Source of the DNA: Candidatus Thorarchaeota archaeon
GTDB taxonomy: Archaea; Asgardarchaeota; Thorarchaeia; Thorarchaeales; Thorarchaeaceae
Length of the DNA stretch: 36,268 nucleotides
Direction of reading: 5' to 3'
Assembly: GCA_011364905.1 (NCBI GenBank)
Contig: RDNZ01000028.1
Span: 1 to 36,268, forward strand
The notes under the pieces were generated by a model. It did not search any database. It saw only the letters and a program-made list of their open reading frames with translations, and was not told where the DNA came from. The translations under genes were made by a program, and so were the position numbers. Positions 5,770-26,981 of this stretch are shown in pieces; positions within the stretch are counted from its first letter, which is position 1, and each line of letters opens with the position of its first letter.

Positions 5770-5863
5770 AGATGGGTAAGAAGTAGAGGCTGACGGGGTC
5801 GGGTGAACAGGGAACTTTCCCTTTACCTGTCATTGTTGAGCCACCCTTTTCATTTTGCAATTG
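5770..5863 (+). repeat. Repeat copy 1 (native 16S trailer: 3' arm of the processing stem plus T-rich tail)
   Basis: agatgggtaagaagtagaggctgacggggtcgggtgaacagggaactttccctttacctgtcattgttgagccacccttttcattttgcaattg; complementary to 4091-4156. Confidence 0.92.
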
Positions 5864-5940
5864 ACACAACAGAAATGAACGAAACCATAAAAGGTGAAAA
5901 GCATCTAACACGTATCTTATACATCTCATTGTTAGAAGCA

Positions 5941-6441
5941 ATGTTGGAGAGAAAGTATAAGATTGCAAAAGTCGCGGTCATCATGAGGAGTGTTCCGTCG
6001 ATATCACAGTGTATCACAGTGACTACATTTCTAACGCCTTTTGCTGTCAAAATTTTCCAAACCCCATTATTCGCCTCTGGACTAGCATGGTACTTCCCAT
6101 TCTGGAAGTACTATTACGGTAATGACGAATCTGGCGACTTTGCATTTCTTCGGACCTTCCGTCTTGATGGACTCCTCACCCTTGAGATCTTTACGACTGT
6201 CGTACTTGTGACTACCGGGTTGATATTGGCTGAGGTCTTGCGTCGTGCAAAGAATGAGGCTAAGTGGTACAATTTCGGGTGGTTTTCGGTACTCACAGCA
6301 ACGATAATTCAAATTGCTACCCCACTTATCGCCATGTCAATGTTGGATGGGTTCAATATCTATATGTATCTGCCAATACCAACTCCATCAGTATTCGCCA
6401 TGGTCGGACTCATCATGATTCGCAGGAAGAAAAACCTGTAG
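5941..6441 (+). CDS. Hypothetical membrane protein (cassette 1); start uncertain (5875 or 5941)
   Basis: ORF track 5803-6441 starts inside the repeat, so a later ATG was chosen; about 4 TM segments and a basic C-terminus. Confidence 0.7.
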   Translation: MLERKYKIAKVAVIMRSVPSISQCITVTTFLTPFAVKIFQTPLFASGLAWYFPFWKYYYGNDESGDFAFLRTFRLDGLLTLEIFTTVVLVTTGLILAEVLRRAKNEAKWYNFGWFSVLTATIIQIATPLIAMSMLDGFNIYMYLPIPTPSVFAMVGLIMIRRKKNL

Positions 6442-6514
6442 GATTGGTTCTGGATTAGGTCCTTCCCGCGAAACACCATCTCAAATGGTGGTTACAGCTT
6501 GTTCTGTCTTCGGA

Positions 6515-6601
6515 CAGAGAGAGGTGCAGGCTTACGACGGGGTCAGGTAATCAGGGAACTTTCCCTCTCCTCACCTGTTGAGCCACCCTTTTCATTTTGC
6601 A
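6515..6601 (+). repeat. Repeat copy 2 (alternative left-arm allele)
   Basis: cagagagaggtgcaggcttacgacggggtcaggtaatcagggaactttccctctcctcacctgttgagccacccttttcattttgca. Confidence 0.9.
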
Positions 6602-6758
6602 TAAACCAAAGTGTCTGAAAGAAGATAGTCATTTCTATGTTCTCTACAATAAAGCTCTCTATTCCAGAAATAGACATTCGTTGATGCTAAAGCTTAACTC
6701 TATGGCTAGCTATCTGTAAGTTTAGGAGTTTCAGTACTGCGGGATTCACAATGATACT

Positions 6759-7631
6759 TTGGTGAAGGGAACAATGTCATTTGGACATCCATGTTATCAA
6801 CGAATGTCGAAGACACATGCTGCTCTCTTTCTCACACTCTTTCTTTTTCTTCTACCGATTCAGTCAGGATGCGCGGTTTCTGAATCTAACATCACTCAGT
6901 CATTTAGAGCAGCACCGTTGCAAGATATTCCTAATAATCAATCGATAACAATGATGCTGAACGGACACCCTCTTGGGAACTCAATTAATGCCACTTTGGT
7001 CTTTGGATTTCGATTTGATTCTACCGAAAATGAGTACAAAATCGGTTTCTCTCAGCAGTATCTAAGTATCTCAGATTCGCCCCTCTTTCTCCGTGCACTT
7101 GGTCTGGGATACGATGAGATGAGAGAGTTTCCATTCGCATACACTACTGAAGGCATGATCACGGATTATTGGTATAATCACACACCGAATTGGACAAGTA
7201 AAAGACCATACCTGACTTGGACAGAAAAGAGTAGATGGGGTGGATATCTAGGACCGATATCTGAGGAGAATATGACTCATCTCTCAATGGCTGGCGATTT
7301 CGTTGAATTTGAGAATCTAACCATCTACTACGAGGATGGCTCATCTTCGTTATGCGGTCCTGAGTTGATAACACTTGGTGTTAACCTTACAAAAACTGAT
7401 AGCGAGTGGTCGGTTCAATATGTGATCTCTACATCGACATTGGAAGGAGTTACCATAGATGAGTCGCGAGTTACAATTCAACTGACCAAAGCAGACCAGG
7501 TGTCGATTGTGTTCATCTCGATGTTATCCGGAGGAATTGTTCTGGTCATCATTACTATCGTAATCTACAAGAAAAGAGAATCGATTGTCCGTACTAAAAC
7601 CCATGAATCATCAAGCATATCCCCAGTCTGA
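6759..7631 (+). CDS. Secreted/surface protein with N-terminal signal and C-terminal TM anchor
   Basis: Hydrophobic N-terminal stretch (AALFLTLFLFLLPI), C-terminal TM followed by YKKR; start may be 6774 or later. Confidence 0.75.
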   Translation: MVKGTMSFGHPCYQRMSKTHAALFLTLFLFLLPIQSGCAVSESNITQSFRAAPLQDIPNNQSITMMLNGHPLGNSINATLVFGFRFDSTENEYKIGFSQQYLSISDSPLFLRALGLGYDEMREFPFAYTTEGMITDYWYNHTPNWTSKRPYLTWTEKSRWGGYLGPISEENMTHLSMAGDFVEFENLTIYYEDGSSSLCGPELITLGVNLTKTDSEWSVQYVISTSTLEGVTIDESRVTIQLTKADQVSIVFISMLSGGIVLVIITIVIYKKRESIVRTKTHESSSISPV

Positions 7632-7679
7632 AATGATATTCACTCTGCGGTGCAATCTTTAGGTTTTCCCAAAGCCAAG

Positions 7680-7720
7680 ACAGAAACTTGTCCTTACTTC
7701 GCCTGTTGAGCCACCCTTTC
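7680..7720 (+). repeat. Repeat copy 3 (right half only)
   Basis: acagaaacttgtccttacttcgcctgttgagccaccctttc. Confidence 0.8.
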
Positions 7721-7812
7721 TCTCAAAAAATGAAGACACCTGCATTTCTTGCACATTCTACTCTATCTAGTGGCATTCCTTTATTCATTCTGCATCCTCG
7801 TGGAGACAGATT

Positions 7813-8328
7813 TTATGGTTCATTTGGTAGTAGTGGTGACCGATACCCAAGCTCCTTTAGCTTTTTGTAAAGCAATTTACTGGAGTCCATTGATCCTGAA
7901 CGTCTCCATTTAGCGGCAAGATCTGGTTCAATAGATTTGATTTTTTCAAACCATGCCATTGCAAAGACAGCTAGAGATTCAGGAATTAATCTGGCATTGG
8001 TAACCTTAGCTTCGACAAGCTTTCCCATTGAATCGAAGAATGAACCTACAAAGATGAATTTAGCATATGCTTTGGGATTTGTTCTGGGTCCATATTTCTG
8101 ATCGAACTCTTGAGCATCTTTCCAATTCCACTCTATAACAACTTCTGAAGCATGCTGAATAAACTCCAAGTCTGCCTGTCTATGAAAATCAAGAAAGACT
8201 GAAGCTTGTCTTGACTTTGCAAAGTTCCTTATAGAGAGAACACTCATGATAACACCAATTAGGACGCTTGCTGCGGCAATCATTATTGATATCGATTGTA
8301 AATCCAGCTCCATCTGCAAGTGACTCAC
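7813..8328 (-). CDS. N-terminally membrane-anchored hypothetical protein (DUF4760-like architecture)
   Basis: One N-terminal TM followed by a helical domain with FFDSMGKLV; family call is by resemblance only. Confidence 0.7.
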   Translation of the reverse strand: MSHLQMELDLQSISIMIAAASVLIGVIMSVLSIRNFAKSRQASVFLDFHRQADLEFIQHASEVVIEWNWKDAQEFDQKYGPRTNPKAYAKFIFVGSFFDSMGKLVEAKVTNARLIPESLAVFAMAWFEKIKSIEPDLAAKWRRSGSMDSSKLLYKKLKELGYRSPLLPNEP

Positions 8329-8467
8329 CTATGTCCTGTCGTGAGGAATATTCTATACTAAAAAAGGCTCTGAGTAGAGCTCCAGATTTCCAAGAAGCAA
8401 GACGGAGTGTGCAAACAGATTTGAAGAGTAGTTTTGTTGTTTTGTATACTATCTATTTGCAAAGAAG

Positions 8468-8608
8468 ATGAAAGTAAGGGAACTGAGATTCTATCTGGTT
8501 AGACATGGCCAATCTGAAGCAAATGTAACGAAGACGATCTCTGGACATAGCGAAACGCCACTAACTGAATTAGGACAAGCCCAGGCTGAAGCTATTGGGA
8601 TGACTTGA
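8468..8608 (+). pseudogene. Truncated histidine phosphatase (phosphoglycerate mutase-like) N-terminal fragment
   Basis: Manual translation MKVRELRFYLVRHGQSEANVTKTISGHSETPLTELGQAQAEAIGMT*: RHG motif and PLT-x-x-G-x-x-QA motif; only 46 aa. Confidence 0.85.
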
Positions 8609-8737
8609 ACTTCTCATTTCAGTGGGATTCCTAGACGCTTCATACCAATATTTGTAGTTGAATATCTGTATCCAGCAGATGCGTGAGATATGTAGTATTA
8701 TTATAGGCGTATATGAGATTCCATTCTGAGGATTTCA

Positions 8738-9010
8738 ATGACTGAAAATGATGAGCTAAGAAAAGAAGCAAAAGAGCGGGCTGAAATGAAGTTTTCATTC
8801 TATATCAACATCGCGCTCTATATAATCATCAATGGCATTCTCATTTCCATCTGGTACTTCAATGGTATGGGATATCCATGGATCATCTTTCCGCTAGTAG
8901 GATGGGGAATAGCTGTCGTGATACATTATCTTTTGGCATTTGTCTTCCCTGGAAGAAAGTTCTTAGATGGAATGGCTGAGAAAGAATATGAAAAATTAAC
9001 AAGGGGCTAG
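8738..9010 (+). CDS. 2TM domain-containing protein
   Basis: EAKERAE...FYIN..LYIIIN and WIIFPLVGWGIAVVIH are characteristic of the 2TM family. Confidence 0.85.
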   Translation: MTENDELRKEAKERAEMKFSFYINIALYIIINGILISIWYFNGMGYPWIIFPLVGWGIAVVIHYLLAFVFPGRKFLDGMAEKEYEKLTRG

Positions 9011-9102
9011 CGTACGCTATCCCTAAACTCTTTTTTTTGACTTAGCTTTTTGAGAGAACCGATATAATTAGTCCTAACGATCCGATGGACACAACCAGTC
9101 TC

Positions 9103-9189
9103 AGATGGGTAAGAAGTAGAGGCTGACGGGGTCGGGTGAACAGGGACCTTTCCCTTGCCTGTACTATTGAGTCACTCTTCTCATTTTAC
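9103..9189 (+). repeat. Repeat copy 4 (full length)
   Basis: First 44 nt identical to 5770-5813, then cctttcccttgcctgtactattgagtcactcttctcattttac. Confidence 0.95.
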
Positions 9190-9288
9190 ATTCAGTCTCA
9201 GTGGTTTGCAGGTCTGGTCTTATTCACCTGAAATCTCAAACAGATATTTCGATAGTATGAAATATCACGATTCATCTTTTGACGTAAT

Positions 9289-9765
9289 GTGATTAATTCA
9301 GAATTACTGAGCGCCTTTCGAATAATAGTCAATCAGCTAGAGGACGAGGACATTCGCTGGACAATAATGGGAAGTGCTAGTCTTGCTCTTCAAGGAGTAG
9401 ATATCACCCCCAACGATATCGATATTCTAACAGATGAGTATGGGGCGTTCAAAATTGGTGTATTATTGAAAGAATTTGAAATCAAACCAGTTAGCTTTAG
9501 CCAGACTGATCTTTTCGAGTCTTTCTACGGCATCTATGACATAGAAGGAACAAAAGTCGATGTAATGGGAGATTTTAGAGTGCGGTTAGAAGGTACATGG
9601 GTTTCTCTATCTGATAGACTCGAATCACCATCACTTGTTCAAATCAATGCAATGAATATACCTGTATCCTCAATGCATGATCAACTATTATTCTATGAAA
9701 AACTAGGTCGTGAGAAAGACAAAGATTGCATTTTAAAGATTAAGAAAGTTCTCAGAATTTTCTGA
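9289..9765 (+). CDS. Pol-beta superfamily nucleotidyltransferase (aminoglycoside adenylyltransferase-like, small)
   Basis: GS-x-S-L-x-x-QG...PNDIDIL motif and third Asp in KVDVMG. Confidence 0.8.
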   Translation: MINSELLSAFRIIVNQLEDEDIRWTIMGSASLALQGVDITPNDIDILTDEYGAFKIGVLLKEFEIKPVSFSQTDLFESFYGIYDIEGTKVDVMGDFRVRLEGTWVSLSDRLESPSLVQINAMNIPVSSMHDQLLFYEKLGREKDKDCILKIKKVLRIF

Positions 9766-9854
9766 AGATGCGAGGCCCGCTGTCAAATTAGAAAGTATCT
9801 ATTTAAAATCCGAATACGATATTAGCAAGCAAATGCTAGTACTGTGAAGGTTAG

Positions 9855-10775
9855 GTGCTGAGTTTGGACGAGATTGACAAGGGAATTCTCTTTGGAATGC
9901 TCCAAAATTGTAGAACTCCATATCGAACCCTTGCCCAGCAGTTTAACATGACCGCAAATGCTGTCAAGAAGAGAGTTCAGAAGCTGGTTGATACAGGTGT
10001 GATTGTGAAGTTTACCGCCGAACTTTCTCCGGCTATGGTAGATGGTGAGAACTGTCTTGCTGTGATTTTCACGGATGGAGGAGAGGATGCGGATGAACTT
10101 GTTCAAAAAATAGGATCACACTTGTTGATAAGAGAGGTAGGCATCTTATCTGGTTCATCATATTTGGCAATGGGAACCCACATTGGTTCAGAGAGTCTTA
10201 GAGACCTTGGCAGCTTTCTTCGCGGAATTGATAATGTCAAGAGTGTTGAGCTACACGGTCTTGTAAAGGATGCGCTTCATGGAAGGAAGACTATTTTGAC
10301 CAAACTGCAGCTTAGAGTTCTACACTGCCTTGTCGAAGATCCTCGTATGTCGACTAGAAAGATATCAGAGATAACCGGACTTACAGTAAGAAGAACTCGA
10401 TTAACAATCAATAAACTTCTCGATAGTGGAGCAGTTTCCCTTGGAATAAGATGGAATCTAAGCGCAGGAGAAGGATTTGTCTTTCTTTTGAAAATCAGAT
10501 GGGATGACAAAACTGGAAGTCTTGGGAATGTGCTCCTCTTCATAAGTGAGAATTTCCCTGTGGCATTCTATGGTCCATTAGTTTCAGCAACAGAATCAAT
10601 AGTTTTTGCAGTATTTGTTGTTAAGCAGTTCAAAGATGCAGATTCAATATCAAAGAAGATTACACAAGCACCTTTTGTGGAAACTTGTCAAGCGCTTTTT
10701 GGCAGACCTCAAAAAAGTTTTCCAGATATCCGCAGTACTCACCTTACAGAACTACTCAAAAATGCTGGTCTGTAA
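9855..10775 (+). CDS. Tandem Lrp/AsnC-type winged-helix transcriptional regulator
   Basis: Two HTH units: LDEIDKGIL...NCRTPYRTLA...AVKKRVQKL and LQLRVLHCLVEDPRMSTRKIS. Confidence 0.88.
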   Translation: MLSLDEIDKGILFGMLQNCRTPYRTLAQQFNMTANAVKKRVQKLVDTGVIVKFTAELSPAMVDGENCLAVIFTDGGEDADELVQKIGSHLLIREVGILSGSSYLAMGTHIGSESLRDLGSFLRGIDNVKSVELHGLVKDALHGRKTILTKLQLRVLHCLVEDPRMSTRKISEITGLTVRRTRLTINKLLDSGAVSLGIRWNLSAGEGFVFLLKIRWDDKTGSLGNVLLFISENFPVAFYGPLVSATESIVFAVFVVKQFKDADSISKKITQAPFVETCQALFGRPQKSFPDIRSTHLTELLKNAGL

Positions 10776-10939
10776 ATCTCGTTTCATAGAACTTCTATCT
10801 ATGCCTGAATGCTCTATATGAACAACTGAGTTCACAAATCACTTCTTTTCTGCACCTTGTCAGGTTCTTACTGAACTTGTTAGCACACATGAATAGAATT
10901 GCTTTTTCTGTCCCACATTAGTAGAGGTGATTTCATCAA

Positions 10940-11719
10940 ATGGAAGTCATTGTTGAGCAATCATTCAAGAAAACCAAGAAAACTGCTATTGAGCTGAAGA
11001 ATCTGACAAAGAGGTTTGGTAACCTCACAGCTGTTGATGGGCTTTTTCTTGATATTAGATGGGGTGAGATTTTTGGTCTTCTAGGACCAAATGGAGCTGG
11101 AAAGACAACAACAGTCAATATACTTTCGACGTTACTGGACCCTACTGAAGGCTATGCTACTGTGGCCGGACACGATGTTGTTGAGAAAGCTAGTGAAGTT
11201 CGAAAGGTGATTGGTCTCTGTCCACAGGAACCAGCATACTTTCCATATCTCACTGGTCGAGAAAACATAGAGTTATTCGGTCAACTTCATTCAGTGCCAC
11301 AGAAACTACTCGGTGAACGAATTGAGAATTTGGCTCAGAGAGTTGATATTCATGATGATATTGACCGACGTGCAAGTCATTATAGCGGTGGGATGATACG
11401 TCGTATCAGCACTATCATGGCGCTCATTCACGATCCTCCTGTCGCTTTGCTTGATGAGCCCACTGTCGCAATGGATCCGATATCTCGCAGGTCAGTATGG
11501 GACTTCATCAAAGAACTGAGAAGCCAAAACAAGACAATTATTCTTACAACACATTACATGGAAGAAGCACAGGAACTCTCCGATAGAGTCGGCATAATCG
11601 ATGAAGGTAGACTGATTGAGGTCGGACCGCCCCAAGACTTGATAGACAAATACCAGGTAAACGACCTAGAAGATGTCTTCGTCTTGAGAACGGGTAAGAA
11701 GCTAAAGGAGGAGGTCTAG
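10940..11719 (+). CDS. ABC-2 type exporter ATP-binding protein
   Basis: Walker A GPNGAGKT, signature YSGGM, Walker B LLDEPT, H-loop TTHYMEEA. Confidence 0.95.
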   Translation: MEVIVEQSFKKTKKTAIELKNLTKRFGNLTAVDGLFLDIRWGEIFGLLGPNGAGKTTTVNILSTLLDPTEGYATVAGHDVVEKASEVRKVIGLCPQEPAYFPYLTGRENIELFGQLHSVPQKLLGERIENLAQRVDIHDDIDRRASHYSGGMIRRISTIMALIHDPPVALLDEPTVAMDPISRRSVWDFIKELRSQNKTIILTTHYMEEAQELSDRVGIIDEGRLIEVGPPQDLIDKYQVNDLEDVFVLRTGKKLKEEV

Positions 11720-12883
11720 ATGGACTTCAAGCGTGTTTTGGCCTTGGTAAAGAAGAACATGAAGAAGTTCACCAGAGACCCAGGCACTCTGTTCCTGCTT
11801 GTATTGTTTCCTGTTGTTCTTACAACCGTGTTTGGATTCGCATTTGGAGGCATTGGTGAATCCGGTCCACAGAGCTTTGAGATTGGAGTTGTCAACACAG
11901 ATTACTCATCAGACCATCCAGAATGGGCTAGTGGATTCTTCACAAATCTCAGTGATATTGAAGGTGTTATCTTAGTAGAATATGCAGATAACGAAACTGG
12001 ACAAGCTGATCTCCTCCAAGGGAGCATAGACGCATTAATTGTGATTCCAACAGGGTTTGGCGACAGTTGTCAATCCTACTGGGAGTTCCCCTTTGATGGA
12101 ACTAGTTGGATAAACACATCCATCAGTCTCTACCTTGATAGTGGATCGTTAGTAGCTACTGCTGCAGTTCCACCAATTGTCCAACAGGTCTTTCTTAGGA
12201 CACTATTCGGAGACGCAAAAATATCACTAGATGTTCCGGTTCAACTGACAAGTCCCCAGCTCATATCTGCAAGTTCAGTTTCACAATGGGACTTCATGGT
12301 GCCAGGTATGTTTGCATTCTCTGCAATCTTCATCACTGTAATAGTAGCACAGTCGATGACCGTGGAGAGAAATGAGGGGCTTCTTAGAAGAATGTCAACC
12401 ACTCCTGTAACCTCCTCCGATTACATGCTTAGTCAGACACTTTCCTACATGACGGTCGCAATCATTCAGGTTGCGATGATTTTCCTGACATCATACCTGA
12501 TTGGTTATAGACCTGCTACAGGATTAATCGGGATTGGATTTGCACTGACGATACTGGCAGTGTTCTCACTATCTTGTGTCGGTTTGGGTCTCATTGCTGC
12601 AACCTTCACGAACTCTGCAGATGGAGCCACAGGTCTAGCATTCATGGTTGCTATGCCTCAGATGTTCCTCGGAACATTCATGCCACTTGGTGGAATAGCT
12701 GATACGATTGCCTCGATTATGCCAAGCACATATGTGACAGACGCTCTGACTACTCTTTTCCTACGAGGTGCACTAGTCACAACTCCCTCGATATGGATTG
12801 ACCTTGTGCTTGTTGTTGCGGCCAGTATTATCGTAGTTATTGCTGGAATACTGGTCTTCGATAGATGGGGTCGAGGTATGTAG
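11720..12883 (+). CDS. ABC-2 type exporter permease
   Basis: N-terminal TM, extracellular domain, then about 5 TMs; ERNEGLLRR..TP motif; abuts the ATPase gene. Confidence 0.92.
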   Translation: MDFKRVLALVKKNMKKFTRDPGTLFLLVLFPVVLTTVFGFAFGGIGESGPQSFEIGVVNTDYSSDHPEWASGFFTNLSDIEGVILVEYADNETGQADLLQGSIDALIVIPTGFGDSCQSYWEFPFDGTSWINTSISLYLDSGSLVATAAVPPIVQQVFLRTLFGDAKISLDVPVQLTSPQLISASSVSQWDFMVPGMFAFSAIFITVIVAQSMTVERNEGLLRRMSTTPVTSSDYMLSQTLSYMTVAIIQVAMIFLTSYLIGYRPATGLIGIGFALTILAVFSLSCVGLGLIAATFTNSADGATGLAFMVAMPQMFLGTFMPLGGIADTIASIMPSTYVTDALTTLFLRGALVTTPSIWIDLVLVVAASIIVVIAGILVFDRWGRGM

Positions 12884-12884
12884 T

Positions 12885-13325
12885 ATGGAGCTCTTTGATT
12901 TGGTTGAGGGGTATAATCTCTTGTACTCTACCTCTCAACTCGATCCTTTTTATTGCGAAACGGGACGAACGGTTCTATTACACGACGATGGGCCTATTAG
13001 AATCTATCTTACGAAAGACCCTGATAGATGGGAAGAAATCGCCCTTGAGATTGATATCTTTATGGGCGTCAGTCGTACTTCAGACTCAGTCCAGTCTGAC
13101 TCGACTAACGATAGAGTTAATGACATTCGCATATCAAGACTTCAACTGATTGAGTGTATTTCCTACATAGAATACATGATTCGTTTGGATGAAGCTGGAT
13201 TCAATCTGGAAGTTGTTTTGGATGGATGCATCTGGACTGCCCGATATTTACTCAGAAGCAAACCAGACTCCCAACTGTTTAGAATAATTGCTCCTCCAAT
13301 GTATCGGAATTTTGGTGAAGAATAA
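12885..13325 (+). CDS. Hypothetical protein
   Basis: ATG at 12885 directly after the permease stop; in frame with ORF 12840-13325. Confidence 0.7.
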   Translation: MELFDLVEGYNLLYSTSQLDPFYCETGRTVLLHDDGPIRIYLTKDPDRWEEIALEIDIFMGVSRTSDSVQSDSTNDRVNDIRISRLQLIECISYIEYMIRLDEAGFNLEVVLDGCIWTARYLLRSKPDSQLFRIIAPPMYRNFGEE

Positions 13326-13368
13326 TGATTGAGTATGAAATAAAATTGACATTAGGAGTCGAAAAAAC

Positions 13369-13854
13369 TTGACAAAAATAAAAGCAAAACAAGAAGTTGG
13401 TGAAACGGATCAAAAATGGAATTCTTATGAAAATAAATTGGCGTCAATTTCACGAAGAGCTGTGGCACAGATTATAGATTTCACGATTTTAGCCACAATT
13501 TTCATACTAGTGACGTATATCGTAAAAGGTGTCTGGCTCATGTTGCCAGGGGATCACCTATGGATTATTTTTGATCCAATCTGTGGAGTTTTCTTGGTAA
13601 CCATCTTTGCCTATTTCATAGGAATGGAAGGATTACTTGGATTCACTCTTGGGAAACTTGCCACTGGCATTCGTGTCGTCAGTGAGCAAGGCACTAGGAT
13701 AACTATGCAACAGTCTGCCAAACGGAATTTCGGTAGGCTAGTTGATGGTATTGCGGTTTACATTATTGGAATACGGATTGTAAGAAAGTCTCCATTGTTT
13801 CAAAGGTACGGTGATAAAATCGCTCAGACAGTTGTTATCCAACATTATAGATGA
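13369..13854 (+). CDS. RDD family membrane protein
   Basis: RRAVAQIID, TLGKLATGIRVV and QRYGDKIAQTVV motifs. Confidence 0.9.
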   Translation: MTKIKAKQEVGETDQKWNSYENKLASISRRAVAQIIDFTILATIFILVTYIVKGVWLMLPGDHLWIIFDPICGVFLVTIFAYFIGMEGLLGFTLGKLATGIRVVSEQGTRITMQQSAKRNFGRLVDGIAVYIIGIRIVRKSPLFQRYGDKIAQTVVIQHYR

Positions 13855-18183: not shown

Positions 18184-18193
18184 CATCCAAGAT

Positions 18194-18684: not shown

Positions 18685-18754
18685 TCCTAAGCCCTTCTGA
18701 GAATTACTAAACTCAAAGTATGCATGGTTTCTAACTCATAAATACCTTAACATC

Positions 18755-18797
18755 GAACTTGTCCAAACTCACACTGTTGAGCCACCCTCTCATTTTT
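18755..18797 (+). repeat. Repeat copy 9 (right half only)
   Basis: gaacttgtccaaactcacactgttgagccaccctctcattttt. Confidence 0.8.
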
Positions 18798-18873
18798 CGA
18801 CGTTTCGTTGTGAGAAGATGCCTTATTGATGAATTCAACTTACTTGTTTACCTATCATATCTTCATTTTCTTC

Positions 18874-20337: not shown

Positions 20338-20658
20338 TTCCTATTCATTCAATGGCAATTAGATGTTGAGTTGAGTGGCATAATACCAATCGATTAGAGA
20401 TGACTCCAAGATTCTATGTTTCAATATCCAAGAGGATAGAACTATGCAGTTTTTCGTTGTATTGTTAGCTGGTTTCAATGAACAACAATCTCTAGAAACA
20501 ATAGAGAGTCTGAACAATATTATAATCTCTTTTGTAAAAGCAACTGAATAGAGTTTTGTGCGACCAGTTACTAGCAGAGGAGAAACTGGAAGAATTGTTT
20601 CTTGGAACAATGATGAAGTGATTGACTGAAATCTCTCAGATGGACTTAGGGACATGGA

Positions 20659-20726
20659 CTGACGGGGTCGGGTGAACAGAGAACTTTCCTTATCTTCGCC
20701 TGTTGAGCCACCCTATCTATTTTGCA
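20659..20726 (+). repeat. Repeat copy 10
   Basis: ctgacggggtcgggtgaacagagaactttccttatcttcgcctgttgagccaccctatctattttgca. Confidence 0.92.
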
Positions 20727-20760
20727 TGATTTGATCATCACCAAACCATCAGTTTTTTGA

Positions 20761-21771
20761 ATGCAATCCGATTTACCTACAAAAGAGATGCTGCCTGATA
20801 TTTTGCTCTGGTCTTCGCTCTTCATAGGTGGATATTTTCTAATCTACTTTCTAGCAGATCTCATAATTGACACTCTTGTAGATATCAGCGAGTCATTCTC
20901 AATTTCTCCCATAGTTCTAGGACTTCTCATCCTTGGTATCGACCTAGAAGAGAGCATTGTTTCTCTAACAGCAGCATTTGAGGGATTGCCGTATCTTGCT
21001 CTTGGAAATCTTATTGGAAATACAGTGATTGCAATTGGTATCGCCTTTGGTTTGCCTGCACTTTATCTTAAGGCTGAAATCGACAAGCTTCCAAGATTTT
21101 ATTATATCGAGTTGGTAGGCGCTGGCACAATTGTACTGGTATCCATGGTTCTGACGAGTCACCTATTTCTGTTCGGATTTTTAAGCATCAGTCTCTTCAT
21201 TGCTCATCTAGTATACACTCTGCGAATTCAAAGAGAGTTCAAGTCAACCAACTTACGCAGGAAACAGGTAGAGAAAGATACCGAAAAGGAGCAGGAGAAA
21301 GATAGAGGTGTAAAAAAGAAAACTCGTTTGCAGACAGTTGCTAAATTACTGATTGCTCTAATTCTTCTCTCCGTAGGCGCGGAGGTTTTAGTGGTCAGTG
21401 CTGAGGAACTTGTTATTCTTACTGGATTGAATGAAAGTTTCTTCGGACTGGTAATAATGGCGGCTGTGACCAATGTTGAGGAGTTTTGGTTAATAGTCAA
21501 GTCAATTAGAAAGGATCGCGCTGATCTGGGTGTTAGTGCACAAGTTGGAAAAATCATTTGGAATATCACTTTGATTTTTGGAATTTGCAGCATACTTCTA
21601 TTTCAGTTCACATTTGAGATGATAATGCTGCTTAGCTCGATTATCTTTATCATTTCACTCACTGTTCTAGCTGTTAATCTCTTTCAAAACCGACTATCAA
21701 AAACAACTGGTATTGGATATCTAATACTACTCCTTATCTTCTTGGTTCTGAACTCACTATTCATCATATAG
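20761..21771 (+). CDS. Sodium/calcium (CaCA family, YrbG-like) antiporter
   Basis: Two inverted halves with alpha-repeat-like motifs GIDLEE...GNLIGN and AVTNVEE...AQVGK. Confidence 0.82.
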   Translation: MQSDLPTKEMLPDILLWSSLFIGGYFLIYFLADLIIDTLVDISESFSISPIVLGLLILGIDLEESIVSLTAAFEGLPYLALGNLIGNTVIAIGIAFGLPALYLKAEIDKLPRFYYIELVGAGTIVLVSMVLTSHLFLFGFLSISLFIAHLVYTLRIQREFKSTNLRRKQVEKDTEKEQEKDRGVKKKTRLQTVAKLLIALILLSVGAEVLVVSAEELVILTGLNESFFGLVIMAAVTNVEEFWLIVKSIRKDRADLGVSAQVGKIIWNITLIFGICSILLFQFTFEMIMLLSSIIFIISLTVLAVNLFQNRLSKTTGIGYLILLLIFLVLNSLFII

Positions 21772-21801
21772 AATGCTGTATCAACCGAGTAGGATGCTAG
21801 A

Positions 21802-21819
21802 CTGACGGGGTCAGGCGAA
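21802..21819 (+). repeat. Repeat copy 11 (left-arm fragment ending just after the BHB-like bulge)
   Basis: ctgacggggtcaggcgaa, 30 nt after the antiporter stop. Confidence 0.7.
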
Positions 21820-22012: not shown

Positions 22013-23125
22013 ATGAGCAGTCCAAATACTGACAAAGAAGATGTAGCTCGTAGTCCAGTGACTGGTCTGAGCACCCTCGACAAGTTTCTTCCTCTATGGA
22101 TTATCTTGGCAATGATTCTGGGAGTCCTCTTAGGGGATCTAGTGCCTGGGTTTGCTGAGGCTTTAGACTATTGGAGCATTGGGACCGTATCTCTCCCGAT
22201 TGCAATTGGCCTCCTCTGGATGATGTACCCTGTCTTGGCAAAGGTCAAGTATGAGGAGCTTGGACGACTAAAGAAGGAGAAAAAGATGTTTGGGGTTTCA
22301 TTAACCCTGAACTGGTTGATTGGTCCGTTTTTGATGTTTGCACTTGCATGGATATTCCTTGCTGATCTCCCGGAGTATCGAACTGGAATAATCCTCGTAG
22401 GACTAGCGCGCTGCATCGCAATGGTATTGATTTGGAACATGATGGCTGGTGGCTGTAGTGAGTCATGTGCGGTCCTTGTGGCATTGAACTCAGTCTTCCA
22501 GATAATAATGTACAGTCCTGAAGCATGGTTCTTTGTAACTTATCTCTCATCAATTGTGTCACCTGGATCTGGTTCCGTTGTCCAAGTTTCAATTATTGAG
22601 ATCGCATGGAGTGTCATTATCTTCCTTGGGATTCCACTGGTGGCTGGGATTGTAACAAGGTTCAGCCTTATGAAGCGTCGTTCTAAAGAGTGGTACGACG
22701 GAGAATTTGCACCCAAGCTGGGGCCATACGCTTTGATTGGACTTCTCTTCACGATTGTGGTTATGTTCTCTCTGAAAGGGAATACAATTGTTGCTCTTCC
22801 GTTCGATGTACTGAGAATCGCTCTTCCACTTCTTGTTTACTTCGTCATCATGTTCTTTGTTTCATTTGGAATCTCGTATGCCATGAAGTTCGCATACGAT
22901 AAGAATGTGACATTATCATTCACTGCCGCTAGCAACAACTTTGAGCTGGCAATTGCCGTTGCCATTGGAGTATTTGGCATCGGATCCGGCCAAGCACTTG
23001 CTGCAGTTGTAGGTCCACTCATCGAGGTGCCTGTCTTGGTTGGACTTGTCTATGTTTCATTATGGTTAGGACGAAAGTTCTATGGACGAAATGCTAGAAA
23101 TCAAGCTGGCGTGAAACAGGAGTAG
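22013..23125 (+). CDS. acr3: ACR3-family arsenite efflux transporter
   Basis: GLLWMMYPVLAKV, LNWLIGP, GLARCIAMVLIW, AASNNFELAIAVA, GPLIEVP. Confidence 0.96.
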   Translation: MSSPNTDKEDVARSPVTGLSTLDKFLPLWIILAMILGVLLGDLVPGFAEALDYWSIGTVSLPIAIGLLWMMYPVLAKVKYEELGRLKKEKKMFGVSLTLNWLIGPFLMFALAWIFLADLPEYRTGIILVGLARCIAMVLIWNMMAGGCSESCAVLVALNSVFQIIMYSPEAWFFVTYLSSIVSPGSGSVVQVSIIEIAWSVIIFLGIPLVAGIVTRFSLMKRRSKEWYDGEFAPKLGPYALIGLLFTIVVMFSLKGNTIVALPFDVLRIALPLLVYFVIMFFVSFGISYAMKFAYDKNVTLSFTAASNNFELAIAVAIGVFGIGSGQALAAVVGPLIEVPVLVGLVYVSLWLGRKFYGRNARNQAGVKQE

Positions 23126-23147
23126 TATGAATTCGGACCTTCAACAT

Positions 23148-23209
23148 GGTCCGATGAACAATGATCTTTCCCCTTGCTTCAGATGTTAAGTCGCCCTTTT
23201 TCATTTTAC
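23148..23209 (+). repeat. Repeat copy 12 (degenerate)
   Basis: ggtccgatgaacaatgatctttccccttgcttcagatgttaagtcgcccttt...cattttac is collinear with the consensus. Confidence 0.75.
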
Positions 23210-23359
23210 GTTGATGAAACTATTCGAGTGGGGGGCATGATTCCACTTCTATTCTTCTTAACATGACCTTCAATTACGAGGGTAGCAAAGCAATCAGTTT
23301 CAGCTTCTTTTCTACTCATTCTCTACATTATTATATCGCTTCAAAAGAGTAACATGGTT

Positions 23360-23833
23360 TTAGCAGTTTTTGGCTTTTATTTTGGAATGTACGTGTTCAC
23401 GAACAAGTTTACGGTAGTGCGTTTTTTTCACATTATCATATTCGCTGGAATCAGAATAGTAGAGAGAGATTACAGTGTCAAATCCCCAATCAAACTCATC
23501 TGCAGGAAACACTGCGTACCTGACAATACCCTTGGTGTCGTTTCCAGTTACATCAAAATACAATTGCTGCAGATACCTATTCACCTCATCATCGGATGAG
23601 CCATTCATAAGTTGAAGAAACAGATCATCATAGATGCCAACGAAATATCGGTTATGGTTCTTTGTAACCTCTTTTTCGTAATCTCCATCCCTGACCCATT
23701 TCATTTTACGAAAACAGTCAAAGATATTTTCAAAATAAGGCTGCATACTCTCAACCAATTTATCGGTTGTTCTATTCGTTATTCTAGTAATGACCAACAT
23801 GCCTTCAGGTTCTTCGTACTTCACTTCTCTCAC
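23360..23833 (-). CDS. Hypothetical protein in an AT-rich segment
   Basis: 157-aa ORF with a GGAG-like SD upstream on the minus strand; no recognisable motif. Confidence 0.6.
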   Translation of the reverse strand: MREVKYEEPEGMLVITRITNRTTDKLVESMQPYFENIFDCFRKMKWVRDGDYEKEVTKNHNRYFVGIYDDLFLQLMNGSSDDEVNRYLQQLYFDVTGNDTKGIVRYAVFPADEFDWGFDTVISLYYSDSSEYDNVKKTHYRKLVREHVHSKIKAKNC

Positions 23834-24212: not shown

Positions 24213-24791
24213 ATGAAATCCACACCTCCCTCAATCATAGAAACAGACCGTCTTACTCTACGTCCATACCGTGTAGGTGATGAGAGTTGGTATTTCGAGA
24301 TGAGTCAGAGAAACCACGATCATCTCAAGAGGTATGAATCACAAAACCCAGCAATGACAATCAAGACCGAAGAAGACGCAAAAGGAATGATATCTGACCT
24401 TGCAAACGACTGGAAGGATTGCACGCATTTCTTCATGCCTGTTTTCCTCAAAAGCACCGAGGAATTCGTAGCCCAGGTCTATATCGGTCCTGTTAGTTGG
24501 GACTTACCTGAGTTTTCAATTGGTTACTTTGTTGACGTGGGGCATGAAGGAAGAGGCTACGTGACAGAGGCTGTAAATGCAGTAGTAAAGACGCTTTTTG
24601 AGAGTTTCAATGCACAAAGACTTCGAATCGAAACCGATGATACGAATGTCAGAAGTATAGGTGTTGCAGAAAGATGTGGCTTTGTCCAAGAGGGTCACAT
24701 AAGAGAGAACAAGAAGAACCCTGATGGTACGTATTCCGGCACCTTATACTTTGGATTGTTGAAACGCGAGTTCTTGTTGAACAGTACTTAG
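24213..24791 (+). CDS. GNAT N-acetyltransferase, RimJ/RimL family
   Basis: IETDRLTLRP, IGYF...EGRGYVTEA, NVRSIGVAERCGFVQEG. Confidence 0.92.
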   Translation: MKSTPPSIIETDRLTLRPYRVGDESWYFEMSQRNHDHLKRYESQNPAMTIKTEEDAKGMISDLANDWKDCTHFFMPVFLKSTEEFVAQVYIGPVSWDLPEFSIGYFVDVGHEGRGYVTEAVNAVVKTLFESFNAQRLRIETDDTNVRSIGVAERCGFVQEGHIRENKKNPDGTYSGTLYFGLLKREFLLNST

Positions 24792-24864
24792 AGTTGAACA
24801 TCTAACAAAAATCCCCTTTAGGCCTGAAGATTGCTTTGTATCATAAAACATTGCACTGGTCCAT

Positions 24865-24897
24865 GCCTTTGATTCACTCTTTCGTCTTGTGATTGTC
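24865..24897 (+). repeat. Repeat copy 13 (tentative, degenerate right end)
   Basis: gcctttgattcactctttcgtcttgtgattgtc compared with copy 4 and 6 ends (ttgagtcactc; ctttcattttgtaattgtc); intergenic position as expected. Confidence 0.5.
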
Positions 24898-24978
24898 ATA
24901 GTGTAAAGAAGATATATCACGACTCATTATGCTTCCCTGATGAAGCGGATTTAGTTTTCACAACGCTGGCGAACAAGA

Positions 24979-26907
24979 TTGACATACGTCTATATGAAAG
25001 CCCTAGAATCGGCTCCGGAACGCTACGATAGGGGAATAAGATGGCTTGGTTGGTCAAAGCTAGATGGTATACGTAATCATATTGCTGACATTATAGAGAA
25101 TGAAGCGGAATCTGTTCTTGAGATAGGAGCTGGTACAGGCACTCAAGCCCTTCTACTAGCAAAACGTGGTCTGGAAGTTACAGGCATAGACCACTCTTCC
25201 GGAATGCTTACTATTGCTCAGGGTAAAATCGCTGCATTAAGAAAGGAAAAAGCCGGATCCGTGATTGCCGACAGAGTCACATTATTGCATAAAGCCGCTG
25301 TAGAATTAGATGAGTTCAATCATGAATCATTTGATGCTGTCACATCGACACTTGTTTTTTCTGAGCTAAATCCTTCTGAACAGCGATATACACTATCTTA
25401 CGCTTTTCAGATTCTCAAGCCTGGAGGCATACTAGTACTAGCTGATGAAGTGGCACCACACCGGCTCTCGAGAAGAGTGGCGCACTCGTTGATTTCTGCT
25501 CCGCTGAAACTCATCACCTATATTGTGACTCAGACATCAACCAAAGCTGTTCAAGGTTTGGATAAGATAGTCGAGGAAGCCGGATTTGAAATCGAATCGA
25601 TTGAGAACTACCAGTTGGACTCCTTCCAGCTAATCTTTGCGAGAAAGCCAAAAGAATCCGATATAGAGAGAGAATCCATCCCATCAACTAAGTTCGAACC
25701 TATTAAGCCCCCAACAGGAGGAGCACTCACTACTTTCTGGGAAACAGCAGCACGAATGATTGGACACTCCACAGAGATTGGGCTCATCCCCGTGGGAGAA
25801 CCAACTCCAGATAGTCCAGTACTCTGTACCTGCAACTTCGAGCTAACAGTTCGCCGACTCTATAAACTCATGACAGACTCTGGGATCAACTCATGGATAC
25901 TTGTGGCTCCGACAGGTGGCATCAACGTCTGGTGCTCATCCTGTGGGAAAAACTTCAATGCTGGGTCTGTAATAACTGCAATCAAAGTTTCAAGCCTTGA
26001 GAAGTATGTTGACCATCGAAGGATAATACTGCCACAGCTTGGTGCGTCTGGAATTGACTCACGAGAAGTAAATCGAATCACAGGATGGCACTGTGTCTGG
26101 GGTCCAGTGCAGATGGAAGACATTCCAAGTTTTCTCTCTGAAATACCAAAGTCAATTCGGAACAAGACGGAACGACAAAGATCTGTTCGATTTGGCATTA
26201 GAAACCGTCTGGAAATGGCCTCTGCCTTATTCTTTCCACTATTACTATTGATGTTACCCTTAGCTTTGGTTCTCTCTTTTCTGAATCAATATGCTTGGAT
26301 ACTTCCCCTCCTTCTTACGATAATTGTTCAAATCTACGGTCTCTTTGTGTTTTGGCCAGCTATACCATCCCGACTTGGCACAAACAAGACCATAGTCTGG
26401 TCAACATTAATCATCCTACTGACTTCCTCAGTAGCATGGTATATCACGGAGGTACTTCAACTTCCTTATCCGGAATCACCTGTCTTCCAAGGTTTCCTTG
26501 CATTCCTTAATTACTGGCCGATTCAAGTGATTACTCTCATCCTAATGGGCATCCTCGTATATGATGCAGATGGTATGACGCCTACTCTTCGGTCATCATT
26601 GGCAGCACGAAGTTGGAACAAAGGAAAAACGGAGATGCAGGAGAGGTGGGGAAGTTCCTATGCTCTATTGCCCTATGGGGAAATTTCGGTCATTTTGGAT
26701 TCGTGTAACGGTTGTGGCGTTTGTGTCGATGTTTGTCCGATGCTAATCCCCCTCGTAGATGATGAATCTAGGAAGGTTGTGTTAAGAACTCCTGGAAGGT
26801 GCGTTAATTGCCGAGCTTGTGTAAACCGATGTCCTGAGAATGCTCTATTTCTAAAACCCGAAACAGAAGCTGCAAAACAAGCTCTCCTCAAATTGCAGGA
26901 CAAATGA
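24979..26907 (+). CDS. Fusion: class I SAM methyltransferase (CpaM-like) + HgcA-like corrinoid domain + TM segment + 2x[4Fe-4S] ferredoxin (HgcB-like)
   Basis: VLEIGAGTG and LKPGG methyltransferase motifs; GEPTPDSPVLCTCNFELT, GGINVWCSSCGK, RIILPQLGA, WGPV; about 4 TMs; CNGCGVCVDVCP and CVNCRACVNRCP. Confidence 0.88.
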   Translation: MTYVYMKALESAPERYDRGIRWLGWSKLDGIRNHIADIIENEAESVLEIGAGTGTQALLLAKRGLEVTGIDHSSGMLTIAQGKIAALRKEKAGSVIADRVTLLHKAAVELDEFNHESFDAVTSTLVFSELNPSEQRYTLSYAFQILKPGGILVLADEVAPHRLSRRVAHSLISAPLKLITYIVTQTSTKAVQGLDKIVEEAGFEIESIENYQLDSFQLIFARKPKESDIERESIPSTKFEPIKPPTGGALTTFWETAARMIGHSTEIGLIPVGEPTPDSPVLCTCNFELTVRRLYKLMTDSGINSWILVAPTGGINVWCSSCGKNFNAGSVITAIKVSSLEKYVDHRRIILPQLGASGIDSREVNRITGWHCVWGPVQMEDIPSFLSEIPKSIRNKTERQRSVRFGIRNRLEMASALFFPLLLLMLPLALVLSFLNQYAWILPLLLTIIVQIYGLFVFWPAIPSRLGTNKTIVWSTLIILLTSSVAWYITEVLQLPYPESPVFQGFLAFLNYWPIQVITLILMGILVYDADGMTPTLRSSLAARSWNKGKTEMQERWGSSYALLPYGEISVILDSCNGCGVCVDVCPMLIPLVDDESRKVVLRTPGRCVNCRACVNRCPENALFLKPETEAAKQALLKLQDK

Positions 26908-26946
26908 ACCAGCAGTAAAAGAAATCATTGGAAATCAGGAGTTAAA

Positions 26947-26981
26947 GATGTAGAGAATAATGGAGTCGGATGAACAGGAAA
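26947..26981 (+). repeat. Repeat copy 14 (degenerate left arm, last recognisable copy)
   Basis: gatgtagagaataatggagtcggatgaacaggaaa matches 5780-5814 at 27 of 35 positions without gaps (manual count). Confidence 0.72.

Follow-up and report, generated by a model that had tools for sequence, protein, structure and literature searches.

Why does the sequence directly behind a 16S rRNA gene recur again and again between the accessory genes that follow it, and by what process could such a locus have been built? The question is posed by a contig of a Thorarchaeota (Asgard) MAG (assembly of 3.08 Mb), which we analysed over its entire length of 36,268 nt (hereafter the window). A preliminary description had seen 14 copies of the 16S 3' trailer there, had called the locus integron-like, and had proposed that genes are added directly behind the 16S, each addition leaving a copy of the resident trailer.

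The anchor of the array is as described. The 16S gene is unlinked from 23S both in this genome, whose assembly holds no 23S, and in its relatives; in two of them (G017, G001) the 23S lies tens of kb past the array, on the same strand. Repeat copy 1 sits directly behind the 16S and is its true 3' trailer, composed of a small hairpin, a processing-stem strand, a conserved core and a T-rich tract. Cofold and duplex prediction pair it with the 16S leader at -76.5 kcal/mol (z -9.7 relative to shuffled sequence); the repeated unit thus combines the pre-16S processing stem's 3' strand with the T-rich tract. Archaeal pre-rRNA processing stems are leader-trailer helices with a bulge-helix-bulge site (cf. 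PMC7038931, PMC8339473). Copy 1 matches the 3' strand of such a stem, with leader pairing over ~60 nt, but here this strand is multiplied 11-14 times without its 5' partner. To our knowledge, processing-stem strands are otherwise single-copy.

A sequence-only model built from the copies and run on the window with filters off returned 11 strong direct copies of the ~100-nt unit (E 1e-11 to 6e-27), all on the + strand and downstream of the 16S. Of the 14 copies originally claimed, these 11 are solid, two more are probable remnants and one is tentative (Table 1). Upstream of the 16S, the + strand carries no copy, and the model matches only the complementary leader there, in minus orientation; nhmmer found no significant copy elsewhere in the whole assembly, so that the repeat is confined to this locus and is not a dispersed MITE- or REP-like element. 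Each copy lies between genes or extends at most into the final codons of the ORF preceding it. Conservation, both among all copies and between genera, is highest in the core, which is shared family-wide and includes TGTTGAGCCACCC; the 13-nt core is present 10 times in the window, where chance would give 0.66. A GTTRRRY-like heptamer occurs within the core in 10 of the 11 copies, and the core is immediately preceded by an imperfect palindrome. Matches are weakest for the four most distal copies, a proximal-to-distal polarity that we regard as suggestive only.

Between the copies lie ~13 accessory-gene modules, mostly single-gene units with a median of 1.24 kb; a single gene occupies nine or ten of the 13 intervals, close to the ten first counted. 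The array has a GC content of 41.5% (genome 45.0 +/- 2.3%), and none of the window ORFs tested has an integrase, transposase or reverse transcriptase domain, as had been noted.

Table 1. Positions of the 16S anchor, repeat copies and cassettes in the window, with matches in relatives (genome:contig)
Feature	Position	Strand	Evidence and remarks
16S leader segment, 5' strand of pre-16S processing stem, complementary to repeat copy 1	4091-4156	+	cofold/duplex; repeat model minus-strand match E 0.012
Archaeal 16S rRNA gene, unlinked from 23S	4252-5753	+	Rfam RF01959, 1366 bits, full length
Repeat copy 1, 16S 3' trailer	5756-5868	+	85 bits
Cassette 1: small membrane protein, weak ECF-S-like match	5885-6441	+	listed ORF start GTG 5803, inside repeat; ATG 5885 likelier
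Repeat copy 2	6497-6608	+	81.8 bits
Cassette 2: 290-aa protein without Pfam family	6759-7631	+	
Repeat copy 3, right half only	7673-7735	+	38.9 bits, model positions 47-109
Interval 3: DUF4760-like gene 7813-8328 (-) and 2TM gene 8738-9010 (+)	7813-9010	mixed	2TM module recurs in G018, G021, G022 at 87-94% identity
Repeat copy 4	9093-9194	+	79.3 bits; left part near-identical to trailer
Interval 4, seven genes: ANT(2'')-like nucleotidyltransferase, double wHTH regulator, ABC ATPase, ABC-2 permease, 161-aa ORF, RDD protein, CAAX-type protease	9289-14726	+	
Repeat copy 5	14696-14806	+	79.6 bits
Cassette 5: protein with TBP-like and Fe-S domains	14879-15502	+	
Repeat copy 6	15521-15624	+	54.5 bits
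Cassette 6: RibD_C (DHFR-like) reductase	15756-16346	+	82% identical copy G010:C230
Repeat copy 7	16334-16441	+	87.7 bits
Cassette 7: beta-helix / NosD-like surface protein	16555-18183	+	
Repeat copy 8	18164-18266	+	67.8 bits
Cassette 8: 130-aa protein of unknown family	18292-18684	-	homologous modules in arrays of G004, G011, G016, G022 and in inverted mini-array of G012
Repeat copy 9, left part diverged	18701-18807	+	49.7 bits
Interval 9: BNR-repeat protein 18874-20337 and 98-aa ORF 20359-20655	18874-20655	-	89% identical copy G021:C45
Repeat copy 10	20626-20733	+	80.3 bits
Cassette 10: Na/Ca exchanger family antiporter	20761-21771	+	85% identical cassette G008:C88
Probable repeat remnant, left part only	21786-21819	+	alignment; E 0.014
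Cassette 11: SBF/Acr3-type transporter	22013-23125	+	80% identical copy G026:C113
Repeat copy 12, diverged	23112-23216	+	49.8 bits
GNAT acetyltransferase cassette	24213-24791	+	same interval: uncertain ORF 23360-23833 (-); 72-75% identical copies on contigs of G006, G011, G014, G027, at least three of these contigs repeat-bearing
Tentative eroded repeat right half	24846-24895	+	alignment; E 0.38, not significant alone
Cassette 13: methyltransferase + CdhD/HgcA-like corrinoid domain + 4Fe-4S ferredoxin fusion	24979-26907	+	~79% identical copies on repeat-bearing contigs G004:C57, G013:C39
Probable repeat remnant, eroded left half, last recognisable copy	26929-26981	+	E 8e-4
LVIVD-repeat protein, probably last cassette	27063-28226	-	homologues between repeats in G017, G012, G001

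The same arrays were found in 27 of 27 other genomes of the genus that we searched and in 35 of 36 of the family, and in none of 24 outside it. Wherever the 16S sits on a long enough assembled contig, the array lies directly behind it (G017, G012, G029, G077, G082, G030 and G076), and in G015 a repeat copy follows ~140 nt beyond a partial 16S at a contig end; the proposed anchoring on an unlinked 16S therefore holds beyond this genome. Copies are co-oriented within contigs, the one exception seen being a mini-array of two inverted copies that precedes the 16S in G012, and the ORFs show no preferred orientation relative to the unit (44:36 across arrays). Comparison of gene order showed that the upstream genes for an M1 peptidase and a DUF7521 protein are syntenic between species, whereas the array cargo has almost no counterparts in the fetched array regions of G017, G012, G029, G005 and G001. 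Fetched array loci of different species have 126 segments of at least 78% identity in common, a few of which are shared 16S and flank rather than cargo, and cassettes recur at 80-95% identity in other species in a different order; cassettes 8 and 5, for example, are neighbours in G004:C154 and stand apart here. Of the three outcomes that the preliminary description had named as refuting it, two were checked, a genome-wide scatter of the repeat and an identical gene order in relatives, and neither was seen.

How such modules are bounded can be read most clearly from cassette 5, which in its entirety (14749-15612) is 92% identical to its counterpart in G004:C154, where it has different neighbours. 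Identity of 92-96% begins immediately to the right of the copy 5 core and extends across the gene and the whole of copy 6 up to the core, where similarity collapses. Each module starts with the right end of a copy, continues with one or a few accessory genes and closes with the left ~80 nt of the copy that follows, and boundary mapping shows that this left part moves between species together with the gene that precedes it. The idea that each addition leaves a copy of the resident trailer thus survives in part: most copies do resemble the trailer, and in several genera the majority have their best match in the trailer of their own genome (G000 7 of 10, G017 7 of 8, G012 7 of 13, G077 6 of 7, G076 5 of 5), but the left ~80 nt evidently arrives with its gene. 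Because interspecies homology boundaries fall inside the unit, the unit is the place where DNA is joined. Junction switch points are spread from about -25 to +31 around a TGTTGAG motif within the conserved core, with no single fixed position, although later divergence and the lack of informative sites in the core blur them, so that a fixed site-specific cut could have been smeared afterwards by gene conversion.

Taken together, we favour, with a probability of roughly 0.55, the reading that the 3' flank of an unlinked 16S gene here anchors a hypervariable locus of gene cassettes, whose modules turn over by recombination between trailer copies, probably homologous. Modules would be gained, lost, shuffled and exchanged among related Thorarchaeaceae, most likely by ordinary homologous recombination or gene conversion, either through a repeat-gene circle that is excised and then re-inserted or through a break in the trailer that is repaired by copying from another array. 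Crossovers would fall mostly inside the conserved core because copies of different lineages are still identical there. The true trailer, which must retain its pairing with the leader, could serve as a master copy from which gene conversion would keep the copies of a genome trailer-like while distal ones decay. Homologous recombination alone, on the other hand, leaves unexplained how a gene first acquires a trailer copy, and some genera of the family (G028, G070 and G080) have the same trailer core without detectable downstream copies, which homology by itself does not account for and which hints at an additional, lineage-specific factor.

That factor might be a dedicated enzyme that inserts or excises modules at the trailer core, either a site-specific recombinase from a family not yet recognised or a nuclease of homing type that cuts the trailer and prompts repair from a donor module; we consider this unlikely but the strongest of the alternatives. 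The conservation of the core, its heptamer and adjoining palindrome, the clustering of switch points about it, the strict co-orientation of copies within the main arrays and the array-less genera would all suit such an enzyme. However, the switch points differ in position, a role at the base of the processing stem would equally account for the conserved core, and no candidate gene lies in or beside the array in any genome examined. Searches with known Pfam families found no universal recombinase in the genus, each type being absent from most genomes (tyrosine enzymes in 8 of 28, serine in 8 of 28, Y1-HUH in 1 of 28, Cas1 in 1 of 28) and from this one, which is 81% complete.

It is improbable that the copies instead act at the level of RNA or transcription, for example as terminators or processing signals derived from the rRNA trailer, each kept since its gene needs one within an ordinary flexible island whose turnover is unrelated to the repeats. 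T-rich tracts like the one that ends the unit terminate archaeal transcription, stop codons adjoin or overlap several copies, and much of the complementarity to the 16S leader persists in the copies (-40 to -72 kcal/mol). Yet this complementarity decays with divergence, as descent alone predicts, and a general terminator would hardly be expected at only one locus of a 3-Mb genome. The random orientation of genes further shows that the unit is not tied to gene 3' ends, and homology boundaries within it are likewise at odds with this explanation.

More remote still is a bona fide integron cassette array (CALIN) with the repeats as attC sites and the integrase elsewhere or lost from the assembly, a reading that is largely refuted. 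Sedentary chromosomal integrons and CALINs, which include archaeal ones and are known from Asgard MAGs (Ghaly et al. 2022, PMC9668308), resemble this locus in their tandem, mostly single-gene accessory modules, in the co-oriented, lineage-specific ~100-nt repeats between them, in modules common to several species in differing order, and in a repeat that travels on the 3' side of the module with a junction near a GTTRRRY-like motif, which the right end of our unit fits. Here, though, there is no IntI and no attI/Pc, the R'' box (RYYYAAC) is missing from all 11 copies, single strands gain no folding stability over shuffled ones (z about -1 to 0), RNAalifold detects no conserved hairpin (zero conserved pairs), and a fixed G|TT boundary is absent. 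Conservation extends ~20 nt rightward of the putative crossover, which attC sites do not show. Junctions fall at varying positions, genes point either way without bias, and the first copy functions within the pre-16S rRNA. The tyrosine recombinase family PF00589 is missing in 20 of 28 genus genomes although 28 of 28 have arrays, and Ghaly et al. (PMC9668308) list just two Thorarchaeaceae MAGs with two attCs apiece. The locus is not an integron, and the earlier epithet holds as an analogy only.

We give equally little credence to a trail of scars left by a Cas1-TnpB (RNA-guided) or IS605-type element homing to the 16S end. TnpB-like genes occur in 21 of 28 genus genomes, a few of them inside array contigs (e.g., G010:C54, G001:C31, G015:C131), but this genome has a marginal match only, seven array-bearing genomes have none, the TnpB gene of G010:C54 lies mid-interval ~270 nt from the closest repeat copy like ordinary cargo, and the lone Cas1 of the genus is encoded off the array contigs. 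Least credible is a chimeric contig joined at short repeats: the repeats are ~100 nt long and many family contigs end 0-400 nt past the 16S, a sign that assemblers struggle at this locus, but the same architecture occurs in 27 independently assembled genus genomes and several other genera, in some cases on contigs of 120-243 kb on which both flanks are conserved, and the copies are divergent enough for unique placement.

We found no published description of such a locus in the literature; besides integrons, its parallels include insertion sites behind stable RNA genes. Integrative elements and cargo-only satellites accrete in tandem at tRNA and tmRNA 3' ends, as in the tycheposon-built islands of Prochlorococcus (bioRxiv 10.1101/2020.12.28.424599). 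The two share a landing site at the 3' flank of a stable RNA gene, a direct partial copy of the flank that bounds each module, and hypervariability among close relatives between conserved flanking genes, but here the anchoring sequence belongs to an rRNA trailer, which the mature RNA lacks, and not to the 3' part of a tRNA, the modules are integron-sized, and an integrase is lacking from the arrays examined and from most genus genomes. In another Asgard lineage, Ca. Heimdallarchaeum, the mobile elements HeimM2 and HeimV2 lie between the single 16S and a tRNA-Arg (Wu et al. 2022, PMC8813620), so that the 16S 3' flank is a hot spot for foreign DNA there as well; those elements are single and large (one of 44 kb, virus-like) with a homing-endonuclease-type gene, and neither trailer-copy arrays nor small cassettes are described in PMC8813620. 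If a dedicated enzyme did act at the core, the arrays of the Thorarchaeaceae would represent an integrase-independent analogue of integrons or a homing system that leaves displaced tails. Their position behind a strongly transcribed rRNA gene may also allow the cargo to be expressed by read-through.

Repeat finding, a motif count (10 matches in the window against 0.66 expected) and nhmmer all recovered a direct repeat of ~100 nt downstream of the 16S gene. A sequence-only covariance model built from 11 copies, run over the window with filters off, gave 11 strong matches on the + strand (E 1e-11 to 6e-27). Counting a left-half remnant, a fragment and a tentative right half (listed in the table), the model matched all 14 repeat positions given in the preliminary description, the weakest copies being the four most distal ones. 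That description had named genome-wide scatter as a pattern that would speak against its reading, and this is not what we see: neither nhmmer nor the covariance model found a significant copy on any other contig of the 3.08-Mb assembly. A dispersed repeat of the REP/MITE type is ruled out by the confinement of every significant match to the + strand of this contig. The window is an entire contig, C24, of an assembly of 95 contigs that is 81% complete, and Rfam detected no RNA family other than 16S in it.

The structure of the unit follows from its first copy, which begins a few bases past the 16S 3' end. Over ~60 nt, the leader of the 16S gene (4091-4156) forms a duplex with about 5780-5843 at -76.5 kcal/mol, against -32 ± 4.6 for shuffles; this leader is also matched by the repeat model on the minus strand. 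Long leader-trailer complementarity is therefore present around this 16S, as in the archaeal pre-16S processing stem, with copy 1 on the trailer side; the predicted duplex has several small bulges and no clean 3-4-3 motif of the canonical bulge-helix-bulge type cut by the splicing endonuclease. Because copy 1 pairs with the leader, the unit contains the 3' strand of the pre-16S processing stem, alongside a small hairpin, a very conserved core at the stem base that includes TGTTGAGCCACCC, and a T-rich tract. Complementarity to the leader decays among the other copies (-72 to -23 kcal/mol), as common descent would predict. A covariation attempt using leader/trailer duplex energies across species was uninformative, the energies reflecting generic pairing of long sequences. 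Two other roles for the repeat were dropped: coding on the reverse strand, given an in-frame stop in copy 1 and indels that differ among copies, and a promoter at the T-rich end, given a distance of ~25-160 nt to the next start codon and downstream genes on either strand. The core motif had no match among viral contigs.

Features of the 16S locus and its array in the window, with cargo families
Feature	Position	Strand	Basis or remark
Archaeal 16S, full-length	4252-5753	+	Rfam
Copy 1, the 16S trailer itself	5756-5868	+	
Copy 5, left of cassette 5	14696-14806		
Cassette 5, 207-aa protein	14879-15502	+	TBP-like fold match and putative Fe-S cluster motif
Copy 6, right of cassette 5	15521-15624		
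Cassette 8	18292-18684	-	
BNR-repeat paralogue	18874-20337	-	Inside the array
Repeat fragment	21786-21819		Covariance model, E 0.014
Right half of repeat, tentative	24846-24895		Covariance model, E 0.38
642-aa fusion	24979-26907	+	Class I methyltransferase, CdhD/HgcA-like corrinoid domain and 2x[4Fe-4S] ferredoxin
Left-half remnant of repeat	26929-26981		Covariance model, E 8e-4
BNR-repeat paralogue	31128-32579	-	Beyond the last recognisable copy
Distal segment with a RACo homologue as counterpart	33870-35461		
ANT(2'')-like nucleotidyltransferase			Array cargo
ABC-2 transporter and its regulator			Array cargo
RDD and CAAX-protease membrane proteins			Array cargo
RibD_C reductase			Array cargo
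Beta-helix, BNR and LVIVD surface proteins			Array cargo
Na/Ca exchanger			Array cargo
Acr3/SBF transporter			Array cargo
GNAT acetyltransferase			Array cargo

The genes between the copies belong to unrelated, accessory families. Where the preliminary description had counted ten single-gene intervals among 13, we count nine to ten, with two genes in three intervals and a seven-gene block in one. Array GC is 41.5%, compared with 45.0 ± 2.3% genome-wide. The preliminary description's statement that the window holds no integrase, transposase or RT is borne out, as the window ORFs tested yielded no recombinase, transposase or RT domain. The pairing of a TBP-like fold with an Fe-S motif in the product of cassette 5 is unusual, and its gene moves as a cassette; the methyltransferase-corrinoid-ferredoxin cassette recurs in two other genomes (contigs G004:C57 and G013:C39) at ~79% identity. 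The two BNR-repeat paralogues share ~70-74% protein and 72-77% DNA identity and stand 12 kb apart. Since one lies inside the array and the other past its last recognisable copy, the stretch beyond 27 kb may be an old part of the array whose repeats have eroded. A RACo homologue on another genome's contig (G021:C45, loci L031/L035, 4804-6395) sits between two repeat copies and is 71% identical to its distal counterpart in the window, which suggests, from this match, that genes in the distal part of the window used to be cassettes or are cassettes elsewhere.

The array recurs across the family. The repeat model was positive in 27 of 27 other genomes of the genus and in 35 of 36 of the family, and negative in 24 genomes from elsewhere in the phylum, outside the family; the collection holds one genome per species, making all comparisons interspecific, and pattern scans of metagenomes for strain-level relatives returned no match in one and a single 2.2-kb contig in the other. 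Within each genome the copies sit in clusters of uniform orientation on a single contig or a few, and many of these contigs are short or end within the array, as expected if assembly broke a single locus. Where the 16S gene lies on a long contig, the array is directly downstream of it (G017, G012, G029, G077, G082, G030 and G076), and in G015 a copy stands ~140 nt past a partial 16S at a contig end. Arrays reach at least ~20 kb in the window and probably ~40 kb in G029, assuming that two contig ends belong together. Three genomes from three genera (G028, G070, G080) have the same trailer core and no detectable downstream copies. An inverted two-copy mini-array was also observed 12 kb upstream of the 16S gene in G012 (C81, locus L023, 3895-4540, minus strand), carrying a distant homologue of cassette 8 (35% protein identity) in the same orientation relative to the repeats.

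In this genome and seven others the copies are homologous to the 16S trailer. Copies in other genera match their own genome's trailer, which is a different one, at 77-98%, and a comparison of eight genomes showed that in five the majority of copies match their own trailer best. This resemblance amounts to concerted evolution, with the trailer as the reference copy.

The same locus bears on how rRNA genes are arranged and assembled. Thorarchaeota rRNA genes were already known to be unlinked (PMC8997704). No 23S gene is present in this genome's 81% complete assembly; on contigs G017:C205 and G001:C17 it lies on the same strand as the 16S, tens of kb past the array. The order there, 16S, array, other genes and 23S, resembles an expanded old spacer. 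In seven genomes (G081, G078, G063, G035, G067, G014, G064) the contig breaks off 0-1,231 nt past the 16S 3' end, the distance being 0-290 nt in six, and a likely reason why 16S loci of Thorarchaeota assemble poorly is the multiplied trailer. Among the 16S genes themselves, three carry an extra insertion of ~30-40 nt directly before the anti-Shine-Dalgarno end (G082, G028 and G080; loci L057, L063 and L066), and 16S matches in G035, G080 and G014 span 2.3-2.4 kb, which suggests introns.

Several observations indicate that the cargo moves. The preliminary description had held that an identical gene order in relatives would count against it; what we find is that synteny with G017, G012 and G029 holds upstream of the 16S, for the M1 peptidase and DUF7521 genes, while hardly any array gene has an equivalent in the array regions fetched from these genomes. 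Single cassettes reappear in other species, on contigs that carry the repeat, with 80-95% nucleotide identity and different neighbours; cassettes 8 and 5, for instance, are adjacent in G004:C154 and have two others between them in the window. Among the fetched loci, 126 segments are shared between species, a few of which represent the shared 16S gene and flank, not cargo. For junctions we relied on individual cases read by eye, as an automated change-point analysis was partly confounded by indels right of the core. In cassette 5, identity to G004 of 92-96% starts just right of the copy 5 core, spans the gene and copy 6 up to its core, and then collapses. A module is thus put together from the right end of a copy, then one or more genes, then ~80 nt from the left side of the copy that follows. 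At other junctions the switch from a shared cassette to its unshared neighbour takes variable positions between about -25, which lies in the palindrome, and +31, counted around the TGTTGAG motif of the core. Resolution is limited by 5-15% divergence and by the lack of variation in the core; within it, a single fixed cut would hardly explain the spread.

Recombination between trailer copies by host homologous recombination is, we infer, the simplest explanation consistent with all of these observations. Excision between two direct copies would yield a circle with one copy and a gene, which could re-enter at any copy; alternatively, a break in the trailer might be repaired from another array, with synthesis running through a donor cassette until the next copy anneals. 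Either route would give insertion with duplication of the unit and variable crossovers, biased towards the segment still identical between lineages, and neither would require a dedicated enzyme. Gene conversion from the single copy protected by selection would homogenise the others. Homologous recombination does not account for the first acquisition of a copy by a naive gene or for the absence of arrays in some genera with the same core, and a dedicated enzyme is therefore kept as a serious, if rather unlikely, rival. The trailer would then be the recognition site of a new gene-capture machinery of the Thorarchaeaceae, to which we give roughly one chance in four: either an unrecognised recombinase or nuclease acting on the core, or a route tied to the processing of pre-rRNA, whereby new trailer-tagged cassettes could be seeded by endonuclease/ligase products from the leader-trailer helix. 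As for recognisable enzymes, serine recombinases occur in 8 of 28 genomes of the genus, and Y1-HUH transposases and Cas1 in one each, so that none is universal; among the matches listed, those to tyrosine and serine recombinases in the genus are on contigs other than those with array copies.

Integrons are the textbook prokaryotic route for stockpiling and shuffling single genes and need a special integrase and folded attC sites. The integrase, IntI, is a tyrosine recombinase with an IntI-specific insertion and adjoins the array; attC sites carry R'' (RYYYAAC) and R' (GTTRRRY) boxes and a conserved imperfect single-strand hairpin; and cassettes of integrons and CALINs have a boundary fixed between the G and TT of R' and ORFs overwhelmingly co-oriented with the array. 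The module geometry is the same here, and a GTTRRRY-like heptamer resembling R' is present in 10 of 11 copies. Nevertheless, the Thorarchaeota trailer array is not an integron, because it lacks an R'' box, a hairpin, IntI and an orientation bias, and because ~20 nt right of the junction are conserved, unlike in attC. No R'' box occurs within 120 nt upstream in any of the 11 copies. No conserved hairpin of attC type was found: DNA folds of both strands of the unit alone give -5 to -8 kcal/mol (z -1.6 to +0.1 against shuffles), and RNAalifold on 11 copies gives no conserved base pair. PF00589 has no match in the window ORFs or in the whole 81% complete assembly, and is absent from 20 of the 28 genus genomes, all 28 of which have arrays. 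ORF orientation relative to the array is 8:1 in the window and 44:36 over 80 single-gene intervals of fetched arrays (binomial p 0.43; a longest-ORF count on crude ORF calls).

Tandem integrative elements at the 3' ends of RNA genes likewise consist of units bounded by direct repeats from the flank or 3' end of a stable RNA gene, and at least some of those units bring an integrase of their own, but the array ORFs tested in the window encode no integrase or recombinase domain. Xer/dif-type modules (pdif modules, IMEX) depend on the host Xer tyrosine recombinase and on ~28-bp sites with two inverted arms; they do not fit here, PF00589 being missing in 20 of 28 genomes and the sites being all direct and ~100 nt long. 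Those 20 genomes, some of them 92-97% complete, have no Phage_integrase-family protein at all and therefore no recognisable XerA chromosome-dimer resolvase. Homing elements of the Cas1-TnpB or IS605 type use Cas1 and/or TnpB, a target-directed guide and adjoining insertions. TnpB is common in the genus and absent from 7 of 28 genomes, including several with arrays; a 408-aa TnpB-like gene lies beside a small ORF within one array interval (G010:C54, locus L041, ~2841-4205) and looks like internal cargo. With Cas1 in one of 28 genomes, TnpB missing in seven and the in-array TnpB internal, such homing is unsupported in the genus.

Among published systems, the nearest are integrons and CALINs, the tandem accretion seen at the ends of tRNA genes (tycheposon-type islands) and single large elements that sit behind the Heimdallarchaeum 16S (PMC8813620). 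Integrons have been reported in Asgard MAGs by Ghaly et al. (PMC9668308), whose paper includes only two Thorarchaeaceae genomes with two attCs each and makes no mention of rRNA. We found no description of trailer-copy arrays in the searchable literature, including the parts consulted of PMC9668308, PMC8813620 and PMC8997704.

The locus bears on the unlinking of rRNA genes in Asgard archaea, on the movement of accessory genes among them and on the poor assembly of their 16S contigs. If ordinary recombination suffices, any conserved, selectively protected non-coding flank could become a gene-capture platform, and genomes would have a general, so far overlooked way of staying flexible. Should there be a dedicated enzyme, it would represent a new recombination system and a possible tool, and a gene-capture machinery on the trailer would be an integron-like system independently invented in Asgard archaea, one that would show the birth of cassettes. 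A whole Asgard family keeps a gene stockpile comparable to that of integrons without a special integrase or folded attC sites, and the boundary element of its arrays is a working part of the ribosomal RNA precursor.
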